Position numbers and translations under genes: made by a program. DNA of 64,000 nucleotides from Candidatus Harrisonbacteria bacterium (GTDB lineage: Bacteria; Patescibacteriota; Minisyncoccia; UBA6257; 02-FULL-45-10c): assembly GCA_016192685.1 (NCBI GenBank), contig JACPTS010000001.1, forward strand, positions 529,099 to 593,098, given 5' to 3'. Of this stretch, positions 1,123 through 10,326 are shown piece after piece. Every line of letters begins with the position of its first letter. Within the stretch, counting starts at the first letter, position 1. The notes under the pieces were generated by a model. It saw nothing but the letters and a program-made list of their open reading frames with translations. It did not search any database and was not told the origin of the DNA.

Positions 1123-1194
1123 GGGCAGTTAGTTTAATGGTAAAACGCTGCATTCACATTGCAGAGAGCATAGGTCCGATTCCTATACTGCCCA
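1123..1194 (+). tRNA. tRNA-Val (anticodon CAC)
   Basis: Manual cloverleaf. Acceptor GGGCAGT/ACTGCCC, D-arm GTTT/AAAC, anticodon stem CTGCA/TGCAG with loop TTCACAT, T-arm ATAGG-TCCGATT-CCTAT, discriminator A, no encoded CCA. Confidence 0.7.
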
Positions 1195-2741
1195 CAAGTA
1201 GTAGCTAAATTGAATATGGCGAGTTTACGGGTGCGGGGGTGACACAAGTAGTCCAACGGTTCGTTTAATACCGCTTGGACTATTTGTTTGTCTCTAATAA
1301 CTAATTTTTTAAAAAATGTTTTTGCCAGTAACGCTTTAAGTTCTGGCGAGGCCTTTTTATAGGCATAGTTGCAGTTTGCGGCCAACGCCAAAGCAATTTC
1401 AATTGTTTTTAAAACATTGGCAATTTTACTCTCTGATTTTGCTAATTCCTCGTTGAGTCTCTTTTCCTCGGTTTCTAAATCCACTTTAACGCTTTGAAAA
1501 AGTTCTAAATCGTTTTCGCTGGCTTTATTATCAATAAGTTGCAAAACAAGATTTTTCTTGCGTTGCTTAATACTTTCAATTTTTCCCAAAATGTCGGCAC
1601 GGGCTTTTTCATAAACTCCCTGCTCATCTTTAAATAAAGTTTTAATTCTATTTCTTATTTTTTCAACAAGGTTATTTGGCAATTGCACCACTTTAAGGAT
1701 TTCTGTGAATTGGTTTAAATAATCATTTTCTTGGCCATAGCTTTGATTACAATTAACCCGCTTACTGTGTTGCGATTTTAGGCAACGCAAATATCTAACC
1801 AAATCGCCATTTTTAAGAGTATGTTCCTCCACTGTCATTTTGCTGCCGCACTCACCGCAAAAAGCAATTGTTTTAAGTATTGAAAATAACCTGCGGTTGC
1901 GGCTACCGCCCCCCAGTCGGGCATCAAGTATTGCTTGTGCTTTTTCAAACAACCCCCTGTCCAAAAAAACTTCGTGCTTGCCGTTGGGGTTAATTAAACT
2001 GCCCCAATCAATAACGCCAATATAAAACTTATCCCGAAGCATTTTAGCTAAAAAACTGGTGTGCATTTTGCCGTTATTCTTTTTATGTTTCCGCAATGGG
2101 AACCCCTCTTTTTCTAAAACTTCAGTAAGGGTAGCAATTGAATAATTGCCAGTCGCAAAAAGTTCAAATGCTTTAATAACCCATTTGGCTTCTTGCCAGT
2201 TTATTTCAACCCACGCCCTAACTTTCCCCGTAGCAACTTTTTCCTGAACATTTTTATAGCCGTAAGGGGCTCGTGTAGGCCACCACCCCTCTTTTAATTT
2301 TTGATACATACCAGATTTAACCTTTTCAGCATTTTGCAAAGAAAAAAACTCAGCCACGGAGGATAGCACTCCTTCAAGCATTTGCCCCGAAGGGGTTTTA
2401 TCAGTTCCTTCGGTGGCCGAGCAAATCCTAATGCCGTGCTGTTCAAGGTCTTTTTTTATCAATGCAAAGTCAATGCGGTTACGAGCCAAACGGCTAATAT
2501 CATAAAATATAACCGCTTTAACGGTTTTGTCAGTTCGGCAACGCTCCCAAAGAACCCTAAATTGCGGGCGGTTGGCAGTTCTGGCACTTTCGCCTGCGTC
2601 AGTGTAAATATCCGTTGTTTCATCAACCCCATAGCCGTTTTGCTTGGCATATTCAAGACAACGCTCTTTTTGGGCGGGAATTGATAATCCTTTTTGGGCT
2701 TGGCGGTCAGTGCTAACTCGCAAGTAAATTAACGCCGTCAT
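1134..2741 (-). CDS. Large serine recombinase (integrase) of an integrative element
   Basis: N-terminal resolvase catalytic domain (ALIYLRVSTDRQ with catalytic Ser, IFYDISRLARN), long C-terminal recombinase/zinc-ribbon region (CGECGSKM...C), 535 aa. The 3' end overlaps tRNA-Val in antisense. Confidence 0.85.
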   Translation of the reverse strand: MTALIYLRVSTDRQAQKGLSIPAQKERCLEYAKQNGYGVDETTDIYTDAGESARTANRPQFRVLWERCRTDKTVKAVIFYDISRLARNRIDFALIKKDLEQHGIRICSATEGTDKTPSGQMLEGVLSSVAEFFSLQNAEKVKSGMYQKLKEGWWPTRAPYGYKNVQEKVATGKVRAWVEINWQEAKWVIKAFELFATGNYSIATLTEVLEKEGFPLRKHKKNNGKMHTSFLAKMLRDKFYIGVIDWGSLINPNGKHEVFLDRGLFEKAQAILDARLGGGSRNRRLFSILKTIAFCGECGSKMTVEEHTLKNGDLVRYLRCLKSQHSKRVNCNQSYGQENDYLNQFTEILKVVQLPNNLVEKIRNRIKTLFKDEQGVYEKARADILGKIESIKQRKKNLVLQLIDNKASENDLELFQSVKVDLETEEKRLNEELAKSESKIANVLKTIEIALALAANCNYAYKKASPELKALLAKTFFKKLVIRDKQIVQAVLNEPLDYLCHPRTRKLAIFNLATTCGQYRNRTYALCNVNAAFYH

Positions 2742-2744
2742 AAT

Positions 2745-3233
2745 TTATTTATAACAAACCTCTAATCCATAAAATATTCCGTCTATATTTTTTAGTGATT
2801 TTATGCGAAAAGGGTAGTTAGAATTATTGAGATTACTCGCTGTTCTCAATTTATTTTCTTTCCAATTTTCTCTTTTGGGATACACGCTTATTGCACAGCC
2901 AAGGCCACCAGCATCAATCAAGCGGCCACCTTCGTCATAAAAGATTCCTAATACAAGACCTTCTTTTTCCCATTCTGCCCAACCAACCTCATCTAAGGGA
3001 TAACCCTTGGGTTCTTCGCCACGAAGAGGTGAGCCAATAGCTGTTTTTATTTGAGAAAAGGATTTCCCAAAAAGAGAGGGGATATCAAATATTATTCCTT
3101 GAGTTGGTAATGGTGGTTGAGAATCGCCAGTTGATATAATCACAATAAATAGGATAAACAATGCAGCAAAGGTCATCGCACCAATAGCAAACTTTTTGCT
3201 TGGCCAAGTTTTATTTGAATTTTGTAATTCCAT
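2745..3233 (-). CDS. Hypothetical membrane-anchored protein (island cargo)
   Basis: N-terminal hydrophobic helix FAIGAMTFAALFILFIVIIS. No recognisable domain. Confidence 0.4.
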   Translation of the reverse strand: MELQNSNKTWPSKKFAIGAMTFAALFILFIVIISTGDSQPPLPTQGIIFDIPSLFGKSFSQIKTAIGSPLRGEEPKGYPLDEVGWAEWEKEGLVLGIFYDEGGRLIDAGGLGCAISVYPKRENWKENKLRTASNLNNSNYPFRIKSLKNIDGIFYGLEVCYK

Positions 3234-3296
3234 TTTATTTTTTTAATTATAATTGCGACCTTTTGGCTAAACCTTTTAGAAAATAAAAAGGGACAG

Positions 3297-3430
3297 CCAG
3301 AACCTGCAACCCACAGTATTGAAAGCCGTGAAGCTCCCAATTGTGGAGGTTTGGCTGCCCCTTTCTGCCCGCAATTGGGCTAAGTAGCAGCTCTTCACGG
3401 AAAAACAATACTGTAGGTTGCATTTTTATT
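3297..3430. repeat. Long imperfect inverted repeat / structured intergenic element
   Basis: tgcaacccacagtattg...ccgtgaag...caattg is mirrored by caattggg...cttcacgg...caatactgtaggttgca, giving arms of about 40 bp. Confidence 0.5.
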
Positions 3431-3489
3431 TTAACACCATATATTTTGATTAGTAAATTACTCCAAAATGTCTTTTGATAAACTTGGTG

Positions 3490-3852
3490 CTAATTTTCAC
3501 AAATTTTAATTGTTAATGGCGACTTTACTGCGGTGCGTAATACCACTCCTTTCTTCGCAAAATTAGTAATATAGTTTTGTAAGTAGTCATCCGTTACAGA
3601 GTTTTGGTCATAAACGATTAAAATCCGTCTAACAAATTCCGTGCTCAGCATTTCTTGAAGCTGATTTATCGTGCGGATATTTGCATCACCACATTCTTCA
3701 TCGGCAATACATTCGCTGATGTAAATATCCGTTTCTGGATTTATGTCAAAACCATTTTCCTTTGCGTATTCTAAACATTTCTCTTTTCGTAGCCCCAACG
3801 ATTCTTTGTGAGGCGCACATTTATTTAGGTAAATTAACGCTTTATTTTTCAT
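3490..3852 (-). CDS. Degenerate serine-recombinase catalytic-domain paralog (catalytic Ser replaced by Cys)
   Basis: ALIYLNKCAPHK...KCLEYAKENGFDINPETDIY aligns to the integrase N-terminus ALIYLRVSTDRQ...RCLEYAKQNGYGVDETTDIY, but the S-TDRQ motif is lost. 120 aa. Confidence 0.6.
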   Translation of the reverse strand: MKNKALIYLNKCAPHKESLGLRKEKCLEYAKENGFDINPETDIYISECIADEECGDANIRTINQLQEMLSTEFVRRILIVYDQNSVTDDYLQNYITNFAKKGVVLRTAVKSPLTIKICEN

Positions 3853-3857
3853 ATTTT

Positions 3858-4337
3858 TTAGTTATTAGCCAATATTTGCTTACGGGCATTATTTAATTTA
3901 TTAACAAAGTAATCAGCTTCATTTTGCGGTAATTGCTGCACTATTTCATATAAACTAAATTCTTTATTGTTATTGCTTTCTACTGGTTTTGGCGGCTCAA
4001 GCCGTAAAAGTTCGGCCTGCCCCCTTAAAAGTTTTTGCAGTGCATTCAATGCACCAATTTTGGCATTGCTATTATCCGCCTCACTAAAAACGCACCAGCA
4101 TTCTTTAATTGCCAAATCGTAAGCCAATACCTGATTACAGAAATAGCGGTCAAGGTTTAATTTTTTATTACGATTACCTACTCGCCGTGCGGCCACCCGC
4201 AAATATTCTTTGGCCGTTGCCCAGTTTTTAATTCCAAGCCGCCGCATTATTTGATATGGCTTTTTAACGCCTATTACAAATAAAGCTTCAGTTTCGTCTA
4301 ATAAATATTCTCGGTCTATGTTTTTATGATTGGCCAT
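3858..4337 (-). CDS. Hypothetical protein (island)
   Basis: 159 aa ORF in the leftward island block, no recognisable motif. Confidence 0.35.
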   Translation of the reverse strand: MANHKNIDREYLLDETEALFVIGVKKPYQIMRRLGIKNWATAKEYLRVAARRVGNRNKKLNLDRYFCNQVLAYDLAIKECWCVFSEADNSNAKIGALNALQKLLRGQAELLRLEPPKPVESNNNKEFSLYEIVQQLPQNEADYFVNKLNNARKQILANN

Positions 4338-4535
4338 AATGTTGGTTGGGTTTCCCCTAAATTGTGCAATTTTGGCACAATTTTACTTATAGAGTGCAAT
4401 TCTTGCACTATTTTTACTTGCTTTACTTTTAGTAAAGGATAGTATGCTAATTTTTAGCTTAAAATCTTGTTTTCTTTTTCTTGCCTGCCCGCAATGAGCA
4501 AACGAAAGTTTGCTCATTGCTTGCTTGTAAAGCAA
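4338..4535. promoter_or_regulatory. Intergenic cluster of inverted repeats (candidate operators or origin)
   Basis: aattgtgc-aattttg-gcacaatt, agtgcaa-ttc-ttgcact, and a perfect 13-bp inverted repeat gcaatgagcaaac-gaaa-gtttgctcattgc. Confidence 0.4.
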
Positions 4536-5030
4536 TTATTTGACGGTATTTTCTGGGTTATTCTCTGTAATATTTTGCCCATAATTGCAATTTGTTTTGT
4601 TTGTTTCTACAAATTGATTTGTGGCTTCTGACGGCTGGGCATTGGTTTTGCGTAACAATTCTAACAGTTTAATGACATTTATTTTAAAATGTCTTTTGGG
4701 CGGCACTCCCTCTTTTTTAACCTCTAAAATCCCTAATTGCTTCCATTTTTTAATTGCTGTGTCTTGCTCGCCTCGCGTTAGTTTTGTTTCTTGGGACATT
4801 TCCTTAATGGTTTTATAAATCCACCCGACCTTTTTCCCCTTTTCCCACCAAAAAAGCAATTGCGACATAAATAAACCAGCATTGGCACTTTTAGCTAATT
4901 CTGCCAATAAAGGGTTAAATGCTATAGGTTTTGCGGATAAGGCCTCTAACAATATCCTATTATAATTTTTGGGTAGTTTTCGGGTCATATTTTTTAGATT
5001 TTTTAATTTTTGATAGTGAGCCGTGCTCAC
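4536..5030 (-). CDS. RepA_N / replisome-organiser-like winged-helix protein (putative replication initiator)
   Basis: Motif LFMSQLLFWWEKGKKVGWIYKTIKEMSQETKLTRGEQDTAIKKWKQLGILE resembles RepA_N/DnaD-like N-terminal wHTH domains. Confidence 0.45.
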   Translation of the reverse strand: MSTAHYQKLKNLKNMTRKLPKNYNRILLEALSAKPIAFNPLLAELAKSANAGLFMSQLLFWWEKGKKVGWIYKTIKEMSQETKLTRGEQDTAIKKWKQLGILEVKKEGVPPKRHFKINVIKLLELLRKTNAQPSEATNQFVETNKTNCNYGQNITENNPENTVK

Positions 5031-5031
5031 T

Positions 5032-5052
5032 ATTTTGATAATGGTTTAAATC
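5032..5052. promoter_or_regulatory. 9-bp inverted-repeat candidate operator upstream of the RepA_N-like gene
   Basis: atagtgagc-cgt-gctcactat, directly 5' of the minus-strand start at 5030. Confidence 0.4.
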
Positions 5053-5139
5053 CTTTGCGACAAACACCAAAACACGAGCAATGGCATCAATTACCATTTC
5101 GGTTAAGACCCCCTTGTTATCGGGCTGATTTTCCATAAA

Positions 5140-5200
5140 TTAACGCCCCCAAGTAGCAGCCCGCCACCTTGAGGGCGTTAATTTATGGGAGCTGCTACTT
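5140..5200. repeat. Nested hairpin with aagtagcagc/gctgctactt arms
   Basis: ttaacgccc...gggcgttaa nested with aagtagcagc...gctgctactt. The 10-mer aagtagcagc also occurs at about 3383, and a near copy (aagtagtagc) lies just 3' of tRNA-Val. Confidence 0.4.
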
Positions 5201-5270
5201 TTTCAAAATTAAAAAGGGCTATATGCCCTTTATACACCCACTTTTTATTTAGCCCCGCCAACAATTGTTA

Positions 5271-6077
5271 CTATTGTTGTCCGTTAATATCAATATCAAA
5301 CCATTGTTTAATTAACTTTTTAATACGCTTAAATGCATTACCGACAGCTCCCGCCGTTGTTTTTAGTTCTTTTGCAATTTCACGGGCTGTAACTTGGTTA
5401 TATCTAATAACTACATCTTTTTTATATTCCTTTTCCAAGCCCCGAAGTTTTTTGGGAGAATAAGTGCCGCTCTTTTTAGCTATCACTAAAAAGCTGGACG
5501 GTAAATAATCCTTGCGCCTAACTGGATTTCCAATTCTTTTAATCAGCTTGTCAAAAATAACTAAATCTCTTTTAAATTGTTTTCGTGAGCGTATTGGTAG
5601 TGTTGTTTCTTTGGAAAAATAAAGTTTCTGTAAGTTTTTTAAATCATTTAAAGCCAGTTTTATTTCTTCTTTGTCTAAAAGGGCAAAAGTTTTAATAGAT
5701 AAATAATCAACCTCGCCGCTTTTTGGCTGGTGCTCAATAACAAAATTATAAACAGGGGGCACAATTTTATTTTTTAGAATGTAAGCCCTCAACCCATCGC
5801 CAAACAAGTTGATAAGGTGATAAGGCAATTTAAATTTTCGCCCCAATTGTTCTAATTGATTGCCGAATTTTAAATTGTCTTCTTTTTCATTAAGGGCTCG
5901 CTGCCAATTTGCCATTTGTTCGTCAGTAATAATACCGCTGCTGGGTATGTTGAATTGTTGTCTAATCGCGACGGCTTCTTTCTGGAATTGGGGTAATCTA
6001 ATCAATAATTCAAGCCGCATTCGGTTACGAAATGCGGCAGAACCCAAATTGATTGGTTTTTCGCGGCGGGCTGCCAT
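5271..6077 (-). CDS. Hypothetical protein with C-terminal HTH (sigma-70 region-4-like)
   Basis: C-terminus VTAREIAKELKTTAGAVGNAFKRIKKL is a helix-turn-helix. 268 aa. Confidence 0.4.
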   Translation of the reverse strand: MAARREKPINLGSAAFRNRMRLELLIRLPQFQKEAVAIRQQFNIPSSGIITDEQMANWQRALNEKEDNLKFGNQLEQLGRKFKLPYHLINLFGDGLRAYILKNKIVPPVYNFVIEHQPKSGEVDYLSIKTFALLDKEEIKLALNDLKNLQKLYFSKETTLPIRSRKQFKRDLVIFDKLIKRIGNPVRRKDYLPSSFLVIAKKSGTYSPKKLRGLEKEYKKDVVIRYNQVTAREIAKELKTTAGAVGNAFKRIKKLIKQWFDIDINGQQ

Positions 6078-6961: not shown

Positions 6962-8615
6962 ACTCCTCTCCCGCCTTCTTGGAACGAAACCAGCAATTCA
7001 GGAGAGCGTGAAGGAGTCCAACCCGTTTTTGGAGCGAACCATTGAAAATTGGTTAAACTCCGCAAATGAAATGGGTTATTTAATGCCCTTCAGCCAGCTT
7101 CTGTTAAGCGAGGAATTTAGTATTTGTCATACCTCACGTCAAAATGCTTTTGAGCAAGGCAAAGATGTGGTTGCGCTTGATAAGCACGGAAGCTCCCACG
7201 CCTTCCAACTAAAGGGCGGCAACATTACGCATAGCAGATGGCTTAAGGAAGTTAAAGGAGAGATTGAGGAATTGATTGATTTGGCTATTGAGCACCCATC
7301 AGTCAGTAAAGGGAGTAAGCACAAATCTTATTTGGTAACCAACGGTGAATTGGAAGACACGGTGCGAGTGGCGATTGATAATCTTAATTCAAACAAGTGG
7401 AAGGAAAACCCTCTTGAAGTGATTACCTACGGACAACTTTTGAGGGGGTTTGTGGCATTAAGCAATACTTTCGTGCCGCAGAAAGTTGGAAACTATAAAA
7501 CATTCCTTGATTTATACTTCAGCAATGGCGGCGGGTTAATTGACGAAAGGATTTTCTCTGATTTTATCGCTGATGTCTTGAGACTGAAGGAAGACGGTTT
7601 GTTTAAAGAAGAACGGCGAAGAAACGTTGCGGCGGCTGTATTATATACGAGCTACATCCTTGCTCCGTTCAAAAAAGAAAATAATCACATCGCAATCATT
7701 CAAATTCTTACCCTGCTTGGGAGTCATATTATGGCTGTGGCAGAGAAGTTTTCCCTCCCAGAAAAGTATTGGGAAGAATCATTCAAAATCATACAAGACG
7801 AAATTTTCCTTACTGGAGGTAGATTACAGGAAGAAATTACAAACGATGGGCTGGTTACGCTCGTTAATTCAATGTGGGATGGCGAGATTGGTAGTTACAG
7901 AAGGCATCTGGCGGTGAGCTATCTATTCTCCTTCAAGTTAGCTCAACTTTTTGAAAAGAACACTCTGTGGAACAATGCGGTCAATGATGCGTTCTTCGTG
8001 AAGTTAAAAGATTCAATGAAACTGTGGGGCGAAGGCGCAATCTATTCATTGATTGTATGCTTCCTGTATGTGAATAGGGCTTTGAGTAAAAAAGAAGATG
8101 ATAGAGCATTTTCTCCGCTCTTTACTGCCCTTGAGGCAGTCTTAAAATTCAATAGTCCAGATAGTAAATTTGGTTTGTTGTCGCCATATTACGGAATCAC
8201 GTTTGCAATTAAGCGGCGGTATGGACAGCTTGAGGAACCGTTGGATGAAAAGTTCACTGGGCGGTCATTCTTGATACGGTCTCTGATTGACCTTTTGGCA
8301 CGCCACAGTAGGAGGTTAGAGTTGGAAAAGTATTGGAGAGCTATAACACATATAGCCCAAGACAAATTCATTCCTGAAGAATTATGGCAACATTTTACTT
8401 GGCATTGTGATAAGGGCGATAATCAATCCGAGTTTTCCAATCAAACTCAAAGCTGGATAGAGTTAGTAAAGAATGCTAATGCAATTGATTTTGACTCAAT
8501 ACCAAAAACCATTCAAACGCATCTGTCTTTTTTACCTCTTTTTTTACTTGTGTATCCGCACAGAATAAACAGTAATTATATAAAATTTTTAGATGAAACT
8601 GTTAAAAATGCCTAA
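6915..8615 (+). CDS. Large hypothetical protein with possible N-terminal PD-(D/E)xK-like nuclease motif (cargo operon)
   Basis: 566 aa. GKDVVALDKHGSSHAFQLKGG fits a D...(E/Q)xK pattern. The rest appears helical. The true start is uncertain because of a 46-nt +1 overlap with the upstream ORF. Confidence 0.4.
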   Translation: MMIFSPEKPKENWWTKLLSRLLGTKPAIQESVKESNPFLERTIENWLNSANEMGYLMPFSQLLLSEEFSICHTSRQNAFEQGKDVVALDKHGSSHAFQLKGGNITHSRWLKEVKGEIEELIDLAIEHPSVSKGSKHKSYLVTNGELEDTVRVAIDNLNSNKWKENPLEVITYGQLLRGFVALSNTFVPQKVGNYKTFLDLYFSNGGGLIDERIFSDFIADVLRLKEDGLFKEERRRNVAAAVLYTSYILAPFKKENNHIAIIQILTLLGSHIMAVAEKFSLPEKYWEESFKIIQDEIFLTGGRLQEEITNDGLVTLVNSMWDGEIGSYRRHLAVSYLFSFKLAQLFEKNTLWNNAVNDAFFVKLKDSMKLWGEGAIYSLIVCFLYVNRALSKKEDDRAFSPLFTALEAVLKFNSPDSKFGLLSPYYGITFAIKRRYGQLEEPLDEKFTGRSFLIRSLIDLLARHSRRLELEKYWRAITHIAQDKFIPEELWQHFTWHCDKGDNQSEFSNQTQSWIELVKNANAIDFDSIPKTIQTHLSFLPLFLLVYPHRINSNYIKFLDETVKNA

Positions 8616-9449: not shown

Positions 9450-9710
9450 TCCTTTTAAATTTTTATTTTAAATAACCTTTTTAAGGTTATTCTATTTTTA
9501 TGAAAATCACAAGTCTAATCAGGCGAAATTCCAGGGTGTGGATAACCTGCGGATAAAAAAGCCATTTTAGCTTTATTTTTTAGCCTATTTTGGCGCTGGC
9601 TGGCATTGTTAAATTTTTAATCCAAGTGGGGTACAATTAAATGGTAGTGGGGAATTGTGGATAAGTATGGGGATAGAGCGTCAATCAGGGGATAAGTTCC
9701 ACTCGCTGTA

Positions 9711-9842
9711 CCTTTCTTTCTATCGGCACCGGCGTCGCTTCGCTCCAGCGGCGAAGCGCGCCTACGCCTCGCTCCGAAAATTTTCGCTTCGCGAAAAACC
9801 AATCTTTTTGGAGCTCCGTAGTTGCCGTACAAAAGAAAGGTA
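9711..9842 (+). repeat. GC-rich palindromic repeat element, family A, copy 1
   Basis: Core cggcaccggcgtcg...cgcctacgcctcgctccgaaa...ttcgcttcgcgaaa...ggagctccgtagttgccg with terminal inverted repeat acctttct/agaaaggt. Sits at the right edge of the integrative element. Confidence 0.7.
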
Positions 9843-9894: not shown

Positions 9895-10326
9895 ATGTTT
9901 ATAGGCGAATACCAACATTTAATAGACGATAAAGGCAGATTGGCGGTGCCGGCTAAATTTCGCGGCGCTTTGAAAAATGGCGCGGTAGTTACTCACGGAT
10001 TAGACCATTGTCTTTTTGTTTTTGAAAAAAAGGAATGGGGGATTTGGGCCGGTAAAATAAAAGCCATGCCGATTGCCAAATCTAATTCCCGGGCCTTTGG
10101 CCGTCTGATGCTTGGCGGCGCCATGGAAGCATCCTTGGATGTTCAGGGCAGAATTTTAATTCCTGATTATTTACGGGAATATGCCGGATTAAAAAAGAAT
10201 GCCATCGTTACCGGTTTGTATAATAGACTGGAAATTTGGGATGCCGAAAATTGGAAGAAATATAAATCAAAAACCGAAGCCTCATCTGAGGATATTGCCG
10301 AACAGTTGGATGGCCTCGGTATATGA
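9895..10326 (+). CDS. mraZ: Transcriptional regulator MraZ
   Basis: MFIGEYQHLIDDKGRLAVPAKFR, 143 aa, first gene of the dcw cluster. Confidence 0.9.
   Translation: MFIGEYQHLIDDKGRLAVPAKFRGALKNGAVVTHGLDHCLFVFEKKEWGIWAGKIKAMPIAKSNSRAFGRLMLGGAMEASLDVQGRILIPDYLREYAGLKKNAIVTGLYNRLEIWDAENWKKYKSKTEASSEDIAEQLDGLGI

Follow-up and report, generated by a model that had tools for sequence, protein, structure and literature searches.

A promoter-proximal RNA with competing helices, and candidate conditional terminator, upstream of serine integrases in mobile elements of CPR bacteria

In the ON-type purine riboswitches (pbuE/ydhL adenine, RF00167), the junction, once formed, ties up the 5' strand of a stronger terminator that lies downstream. 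Countertranscripts drive attenuation in pT181, pIP501 and pAMbeta1, phage P4 has an immunity leader and the CI RNA, and in attenuation systems of this kind the terminated leader can be a stable small RNA. Here we describe an uncatalogued RNA family that is new, as is its architecture; its kind, the promoter-proximal leader with competing helices, is known. One copy lies in a window of 64,000 nucleotides (the whole stretch of DNA that was analyzed) from a Candidatus Harrisonbacteria bacterium, a lineage of the candidate phyla radiation (CPR, Patescibacteria) (contig JACPTS010000001.1, positions 529,099 to 593,098), where the predicted RNA is about 150 nt long and is read from the minus strand in the sense of a downstream integrase gene. 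From comparative sequence analysis we consider it somewhat probable that this RNA works in cis as a conditional terminator, an RNA switch controlling the operon of cargo and integrase genes in tRNA-inserting CPR elements with serine integrases.

Like the purine riboswitches, the RNA is a promoter-proximal leader with a three-way junction whose arms are held parallel by a loop-loop contact, a likeness of architecture only. It differs from them in having no Rfam match, in a closing rod of 25-29 bp, in a kiss of 5-7 Watson-Crick pairs, in the small number of conserved junction nucleotides, and in the strands of its terminator-like helix (helix T), which cross stems P1 and P2; moreover, downstream of it are membrane ORFs, YceG-like genes, methylases, bAvd genes and integrases rather than purine genes. 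With the attenuation leaders it shares exclusive pairings, pre-emptor against terminator, that would decide whether element genes are transcribed. Unlike in those systems, no antisense promoter or countertranscript was identified here, an antisense promoter not having been systematically sought; and unlike P4, the RNA lacks repeated target boxes of the seqA/seqB/seqC type and has an unrelated rod-junction-kiss architecture. Helix T resembles an intrinsic terminator in being GC-rich, in the U-tract that directly follows it and in an upstream A-tract able to pair, but its strands lie 53-55 nt apart and enclose a structured insert (P4 and the 3' strands of P2 and P1) in place of a 3-8-nt loop, and a terminator scan gave no call.

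The window begins with rplJ, rplL and tRNA-Val(cac), beyond which lies a block of minus-strand genes that includes the integrase and the RNA (Table 1). The first ORF downstream of the RNA starts 46 nt past the U-tract. A TATAAT lies 13 nt ahead of this 162-aa ORF, and a second promoter directly before the ORF may therefore be present. Upstream, a 159-aa ORF separates the 120-aa ORF from the gene of the 164-aa protein, and more unknown ORFs follow beyond a hairpin at 5133, as far as mraZ at 9895. The 120-aa ORF is a paralogue of the N-terminal resolvase domain of the integrase (E 9e-12, with 38% of residues identical over 82 aa). The catalytic serine motif of the integrase, RVSTDRQ, is replaced in it by NKCAPHK, and because of this replacement it is probably an inactive copy of the resolvase domain; it could be a regulator or directionality factor. 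Among 5.8 billion proteins its only homologue was itself, so it is unusable as a marker.

Table 1. Coordinates and sequences of the features discussed; T strand/tail rows give the two strands of helix T in loci found through their integrases.
Feature	Locus	Coordinates	Strand	Sequence	Remarks
tRNA-Val(cac)	window	1123-1195	+		convergent with integrase ORF
Large serine recombinase (integrase)	window	1134-2741	-		Resolvase, Recombinase and Zn_ribbon domains; PHROG 'integrase' match
162-aa ORF	window	2745-3233	-		first ORF downstream of RNA; no family match
RNA unit (predicted)	window	3279..3424	-		inferred start about 3424-3422; runs to U-tract 3279-3289
T 3' strand + U-tract	window	3285..3299	-	UGGCUGUCCCUUUUU	pairs with 3352-3365
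P1 3' strand	window	3305..3321	-	CAAUACUGUGGGUUGCA	pairs with 3406-3422
P2 3' strand	window	3326..3333	-	CUUCACGG	pairs with 3393-3400
P4 hairpin	window	3334..3348	-	CUCC-ACAAUUG-GGAG	loop L4 3339-3343, complementary to L3
G-strand	window	3352..3365	-	GAAAGGGGCAGCCA	near-invariant; P3b and 5' strand of helix T
P3' hairpin	window	3367..3380	-	GCCC-AAUUGC-GGGC	loop L3 3372-3376, kisses L4
P3a	window	3382..3391	-	GCUGCUACUU	weaker G-strand partner, proposed anti-terminator; C/U-only changes against invariant G
P2 5' strand	window	3393..3400	-	CCGUGAAG	pairs with 3326-3333
P1 5' strand	window	3406..3422	-	UGCAACCUACAGUAUUG	pairs with 3305-3321
Sigma-70-like promoter	window	3428..3457	-		-35 TTTACT, 18-nt spacer, TG-extended -10 TAAAAT
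120-aa ORF	window	3490-3852	-		upstream of RNA
164-aa protein	window	4536-5030			resembles O/DnaD-type replication initiators
Separate 21-bp hairpin	window	5133..5200	-		z -6.0; head of replication-gene operon; outside RNA family
tRNA-Ala	L020	6082-6153			at integrase end
tRNA-Ala	L021	4195-4266			at integrase end
tRNA-Ala	L022	8690-8765			at integrase end
tRNA-Ala	L024	9548-9623			at integrase end
Methylase/ResIII genes	L031	4476-8310			methylase/ResIII clade
Methylase/ResIII genes	L039	784-2454			methylase/ResIII clade
Methylase/ResIII genes	L054	1876-3600			methylase/ResIII clade
Methylase/ResIII genes	L034	1969-5833			methylase/ResIII clade
T strand/tail	L020			GCGGCAGCC/GGCUGUCGC	
T strand/tail	L019			GGGGCGGUU/AGCCGCCCC	
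T strand/tail	L018			GGGGCGGUU/AGCCGUCCC	
T strand/tail	L021			GCGGCAUCC/GGGUGUCGC	
T strand/tail	L075			AAGGGCGGUUCU/AGAGCCGUCCUU	
T strand/tail	L076			GGGGGCGGUCU/AGGCCGCUCCC	

An earlier, sequence-only reading of this DNA had pointed to an imperfect inverted repeat of about 130 bp, which is present at 3305-3422. The two 40-bp arms that it described are not continuous; they resolve into an outer stem of 17 bp and a second stem of 8 bp, separated by an internal loop and followed by two inner hairpins, and the caattg assigned to the arms belongs to the two separate hairpin loops. As RNA, stems P1 and P2 form a long rod that ends in a three-way junction with arms P3/P3' and P4. The proposed folding check bore the structure out, since both strands fold far better than shuffles of the same sequence (z about -5 to -6.6): -58.5 kcal/mol for the plus strand (z -5.4) and -62.1 kcal/mol for the minus strand (z -5.0), or -66.5 kcal/mol with the tail included (z -6.6). 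The single C-A mismatch of the plus strand, in P1, becomes a U-G pair when the minus strand is read. The plus-strand hairpin is followed at once by TTTTTATTTT, as a bidirectional intrinsic terminator would be, but we find it barely credible that the repeat is such a terminator and nothing more, or a chance palindrome: both flanking genes lie on the minus strand, the plus-strand U-run is not conserved (L020), and more than 50 homologues have the three-way junction, the kissing loops and covariation.

Copies of the island in public assemblies are identical or one base different, the repeat being identical in all of them. Relatives of the integrase are 56-84% identical to it, and one of them (L020) has a 77%-identical stretch at the same place and in the same orientation, with compensatory changes in the outer stem. 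A covariance model derived from the minus strand of the window (R1), which scores 200.3 bits there in the sense orientation versus 36.3 antisense, matched upstream of the related integrases of L020, L022/23, L019 and L024, always in integrase sense. A DNA pattern was then taken from the conserved blocks of the copies found by R1 and yielded 49 metagenome loci, all of which match the RNA models, 47 with R1 and two (L038 and L061) with a second covariance model built without the window (R2). The stretch 3279-3424 of the window gave R2 its highest score of all, 156 bits in the sense orientation, and antisense matches of R2 in other loci stayed below 30 bits. The family thus comprises more than 50 copies in metagenomes, and in L021, L018, L075 and L076 the integrase is immediately preceded by a copy of greater divergence. 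Copies were aligned by model; MAFFT misaligned the 5' stems of the two closest copies. The copy at L021 (1499-1608) is a minimal variant that retains P1, P2, the G-strand and helix T and has no kissing arms; its G-strand is held in a small local hairpin, GCGGCA-UCCG-UGCUGC, so that the competing strand lies 3' of the G-strand and not 5'.

When the 64-kb window was searched with the 4227 models of Rfam 15, four tRNAs alone reached a gathering threshold. A search of 3100-5400 at E values up to 10 gave no credible overlap with the RNA; the best two scored 16.4 and 12.5 bits, where the families require 65.7 and 100. Although GGGGCAGCCAA resembles GGAAGCAGCCAA of 4.5S RNA, a bacterial SRP RNA was rejected, as the pairing around this sequence is different and no SRP model matched even at E values up to 10. 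A literature search returned no description of the RNA. Viral contigs scanned with the outer-stem 17-mer gave five chance matches in which the second arm was absent, and those scanned with the conserved RNA patterns gave nothing; the replication-protein query found no relatives among viral contigs, and the region had no BLAST match in collections of phages and plasmids. The integrase scan of genome contigs returned only recombinases of 26-32% identity (Firmicutes, Acidobacteria and others), whose contigs held no credible copy of the RNA (best RNA-model E 0.1-0.3), and exact-protein look-ups returned only identical or near-identical copies of the window sequence.

Pairing within the family is conserved through sequence change. 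Across 47 distinct sequences, standard pairs fill 94.9% of cells, a share that falls to 38-46% once the 3' partners are shifted 1-3 columns out of register; both sides change in 38 of the 47 pairs, and the observed pairing values were reached by none of 500 shuffles. Compensated pairs number 15 of 17 in P1, all 8 in P2, and 3 of 4 in each of P3' and P4. RNAalifold independently recovered P1, P2, P3 and P3', with compensation in 26 of 35 predicted pairs. Loops L3 and L4, whose pairing is absent from the covariance search model, also covary: three of their pairs are distributed as AU:20/GC:18, AU:32/GC:5 and GC:33/AU:6/GU:5, and the loops read AAUUG/CAAUU in the window and AGUUG/CAACU, GAUUG/CAAUC or GUUUA/UAAAC elsewhere, with CUUCAUG/CAUGAAG at L075. 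From this covariation we conclude that a Watson-Crick kiss between L3 and L4 ties together both arms of the three-way junction.

On the integrase-sense strand, G-U pairs outnumber A-C mismatches by 180 to 31; pairing is therefore selected on that strand alone, which fits RNA and not duplex DNA. This bears on another proposal of the sequence-only reading, that the repeat is a binding site for a recombinase or accessory factor. In its favor, a long inverted repeat adjoins a recombinase gene, and a 10-mer within it is met again elsewhere in the island and, in nearly the same form, at the tRNA junction. Yet a site acting as DNA, whether of that sort or as a cruciform, single-strand origin or oriT, appears highly improbable to us. 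Pairing is kept on one strand (about 150 bits sense versus about 25 antisense), every copy has its promoter in register with the first stem, and the motif is not found in related elements. Nor do the variants of the RNA follow the tRNA target, since L068 (tRNA-Gln) and L044 (tRNA-Asn) share loop sequences and have near-identical P2 stems; the actual att junction, moreover, is at the 3' end of the integrase gene, 2 kb from the RNA. The option of a structured RNA, also raised there, is the one that the data uphold: every copy has a promoter, covariation is strand-specific with a G-U bias, and the tail is terminator-like.

In the window and its relatives the integrase ORF meets a convergent gene for tRNA-Val, -Ala, -Gln or -Asn, and ends within it or right next to it. 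It runs into tRNA-Val in the window and into tRNA-Ala in four relatives (Table 1), and several more distant loci have a tRNA-Gln or tRNA-Asn gene at the matching end. Because the ORFs run into these genes, the attachment crossover seems to lie inside the 3' end of the integrase, in which case integration would rewrite the integrase C-terminus. At the tRNA junction CACAAGTAGT is present twice, 50 bp apart (1193-1202 and 1243-1252); the latter copy supplies an arm to an inverted repeat at 1247-1287 inside the integrase 3' end, CAAGTAGTCCAA ... TTGGACTATTTG, and these repeats are candidate half-sites of the attachment site. The RNA itself was rejected as a serine-integrase att site, a 40-50-bp imperfect inverted repeat with a central dinucleotide, as it lies 2 kb inside the island and the boundary is at the tRNA/integrase 3' end. 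At the far end of the island, no repeat of a tRNA fragment was found. A 31-nt imperfect inverted repeat (71% complementary) at 9709-9842, upstream of mraZ, may mark that boundary; one assembly contig of the island ends close to it, at window position 9790.

IS110/IS1111 bridge (seek) RNAs are likewise structured non-coding RNAs just upstream of a mobile-element recombinase gene; the enzyme here differs in being a large serine recombinase and not a DEDD enzyme. A bridge or guide RNA for the integrase was considered and rejected, since the RNA has no match of at least 9 nt to the tRNA/att region and shows no correlation with the tRNA target. An IS110-family transposase (DEDD_Tnp_IS110/Transposase_20) is encoded at 7171-8310 (-) of L018, the contig of a related integrase.

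The G-rich strand, GAAAGGGGCAGCC, is almost invariant and has two possible pairings. In the minimum-energy fold it pairs with the upstream P3a, which across the family varies almost only between C and U opposite G; this pattern, with a mean dG(P3) of -11.6 kcal/mol, fits a P3 pairing that is real but weak. The same strand is complementary to a tail, GGCUGUCCCUUUUU, just 3' of P1, and the resulting helix T measures 13-17 bp and -22 to -31 kcal/mol in eight loci of differing sequence that were found via the integrase. In these eight loci T is followed by U4-5, and an upstream A-tract can pair with the U-tract. T is more stable than P3 in all 46 sequences compared, with a mean of -22.4 kcal/mol. 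Compensatory changes in T occur in six loci that were found via the integrase and not via the T pattern (Table 1), whereas the invariance of T within the 49 pattern-derived loci is partly a matter of ascertainment. The search pattern placed no constraint on the pair 73-126, which flanks T; it is G-C in 27 sequences and A-U in 5, and in one clade it is C-C or C-U; one pattern-derived locus, L054, has a mismatch in T. A different terminator, formed by the P1 3' strand and the tail (GGGCAGC/GCUGUCC in some clades), is not conserved and was rejected because the P1 dinucleotide varies and the tail is constant.

P3 and T are mutually exclusive, and T also crosses P1 and P2. The G-strand thus has two exclusive partners, both maintained in evolution, as is expected of an attenuator. 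Since the kissing hairpins flank the G-strand, the tail would have to thread through a ring once the kiss is closed, and on this constraint we read P3 and T as alternative states rather than parts of one fold. On simple distance estimates, T may also be accommodated as a strained pseudoknot of a single mature fold.

A promoter precedes the RNA at a fixed distance. In the window it ends about 5 nt ahead of P1, and in every copy that has upstream sequence P1 is preceded at 5-8 nt by a -10 box (for example TAAAAT, TACAAT, TATGAT, TATAAT or TATTAT), which often has a TG extension and in most cases a -35 box 17-18 nt further upstream. This spacing places the predicted start at the base of P1, about 3424-3422 in the window, and the putative 3' end is at the U-tract. 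In one clade the promoter is itself preceded by the terminator hairpin of the preceding gene. Downstream, a same-strand ORF begins 18-112 nt past the RNA in most loci, and in L076 and L075 that ORF is the integrase itself, with its start codon 10-15 nt after the U-tract; into so short a gap a further promoter would hardly fit, if at all. Many loci have a serine recombinase gene farther along the same strand, and the genes between it and the RNA vary, among them small unknown or membrane ORFs, YceG-like genes, an N6/N4 methylase with ResIII, a dockerin protein and bAvd-like genes.

Under the conditional-terminator reading, the promoter would fire, P3, P3' and P4 would fold, their loops would kiss, and P2 and P1 would close. 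As long as the junction, P3 and the kiss hold the G-strand, the tail would be free and polymerase would read through to the cargo and the integrase. Where the tail displaces the weaker P3a, helix T would form ahead of the U-tract, transcription would stop, and an RNA of about 140 nt would be released. The alternative pairings and their conservation, the promoter and the leader position are features of the copies themselves; from these we infer termination and read-through. The balance between P3 and T, for which the analysis turned up no candidate effector, could be set by an element or host protein, by a small ligand or by folding kinetics. Since the integrase ORF ends at a convergent tRNA gene, read-through from the RNA promoter would run antisense into the host tRNA gene, which would offer a rationale for tight control.

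A more specific proposal, a new class of RNA switch in which the kissing-loop junction senses a ligand or an element or host protein and so gates cargo and integrase transcription, is put forward only tentatively, as we lean against it at present. Conservation of unpaired nucleotides is sparse and the genes downstream differ widely, both of which argue against a metabolite riboswitch. The position of the RNA before the integrase, immediate in some elements, suggests that an RNA fold sets the expression of integrase and cargo at the step of transcription termination. If true, this would be a new control point for elements with large serine recombinases. A switch of the proposed new class would be a riboregulator dedicated to integration, excision and the expression of cargo, in bacteria that form a phylum-level group not yet culturable or genetically tractable and whose structured RNAs, those of their mobile elements included, are almost uncharted.

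The same features could describe a stand-alone small RNA gene, in which T and the U-tract would be a constitutive terminator or a 3' pseudoknot and the product of about 140 nt would act in trans, for example as a decoy for a protein, on replication genes, or in the maintenance or immunity of the element; leak-through or other promoters would then serve the genes downstream. The RNA does have its own promoter and U-tract, an upstream terminator brackets some copies, and T, with about twice the stability of P3, may make the terminated form dominant. In the window, 12 nt at P3a also find a perfect complement in the hairpin that leads the replication operon, a hairpin that holds a start codon. We nonetheless regard this alternative as rather unlikely, because most copies have a same-strand ORF within 10-110 nt, which in L075 and L076 is the integrase, and because a conserved trans target is lacking: in relatives, the longest matches of the P3a-equivalent segment to its own locus are 7-12 nt, in random orientation and at no consistent place. 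It is compatible with a conditional terminator, since terminated riboswitch transcripts can act in trans.

The 12-nt complementarity also accounts for the recurring motif. The 10-mer AAGTAGCAGC, the complement of P3a, occurs exactly at 3382 (+), 5151 (+) and 5191 (-), as had been noticed, and with one mismatch allowed it has 7 matches versus 2.28 expected. Its copies at 5151-5160 and 5191-5200 are, however, carried by the two arms of one unrelated hairpin (5133-5200), so the three exact copies amount to a single 12-nt match between the RNA and that hairpin. The near-copy beside the tRNA is real as a one-mismatch match, though one of just four such matches against about 2.3 expected, which is chance level. 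At the equivalent position relatives have GGUUGCCUUU (L020), GCUGUUUCUU or GUUGUCUCUU, which track the G-strand and not an external site. A search for the motif in homologous elements had been suggested as a check, with lack of conservation and chance-level occurrence to count against it, and that is the outcome obtained. The 5133-5200 hairpin was accordingly rejected as a trans target of P3a, the match not being conserved in relatives, and we take the recurrence of AAGTAGCAGC to be incidental, a by-product of one stem. The hairpin itself directly follows a terminator-like site, and the AUG of a 58-aa ORF falls within it; another inverted repeat (AAGUAGCAGC/GCUGCUACUU) is interleaved with the hairpin and could be its competitor.

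Genes upstream of the RNA often have replication functions: HTH_36 in L042 and L022/L024, Prim-Pol with AAA_25 in L026, and the O-like protein in the window. In several loci the upstream neighbor is instead DUF5701 or an opposite-strand ORF. RNA-based origins in extrachromosomal mycobacterial prophages are documented (PMC7157519), and to these and to ColE1 RNA II the present RNA is similar in being a promoter-driven structured RNA beside replication genes, with a G-rich strand and a strong promoter. That its transcript primes or controls replication of the excised element is nevertheless very unlikely in our view. No iterons or AT-rich unwinding region are conserved adjacent to the RNA, the upstream gene is not always a replication gene, and the strong link to a downstream same-strand ORF, which sets the RNA apart from those origins, would go unexplained. 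An origin, the last option of the sequence-only reading, is likewise left without support by the absence of AAGTAGCAGC from related elements and by pairing on one strand only.

Apart from its possible function, R2 supplies a sequence marker for locating these islands and the start of their cargo regions, in which diversity-generating retroelements (DGRs), type III restriction-modification and cell-wall enzymes are found. One clade of the RNA is followed first by genes for an N6/N4 DNA methylase and then a ResIII helicase-type protein, that is, type III restriction-modification (Table 1); in this clade the recombinase is far away or on the opposite strand, and the helix T pair 73-126 is mismatched. 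In several metagenomic loci a bAvd-like gene, a DGR accessory, lies about 1 kb downstream of the RNA, as at L071 (385-744, -), with equivalent 119-aa ORFs in L052, L043, L053 and L030, which suggests that DGR cassettes are carried as cargo.
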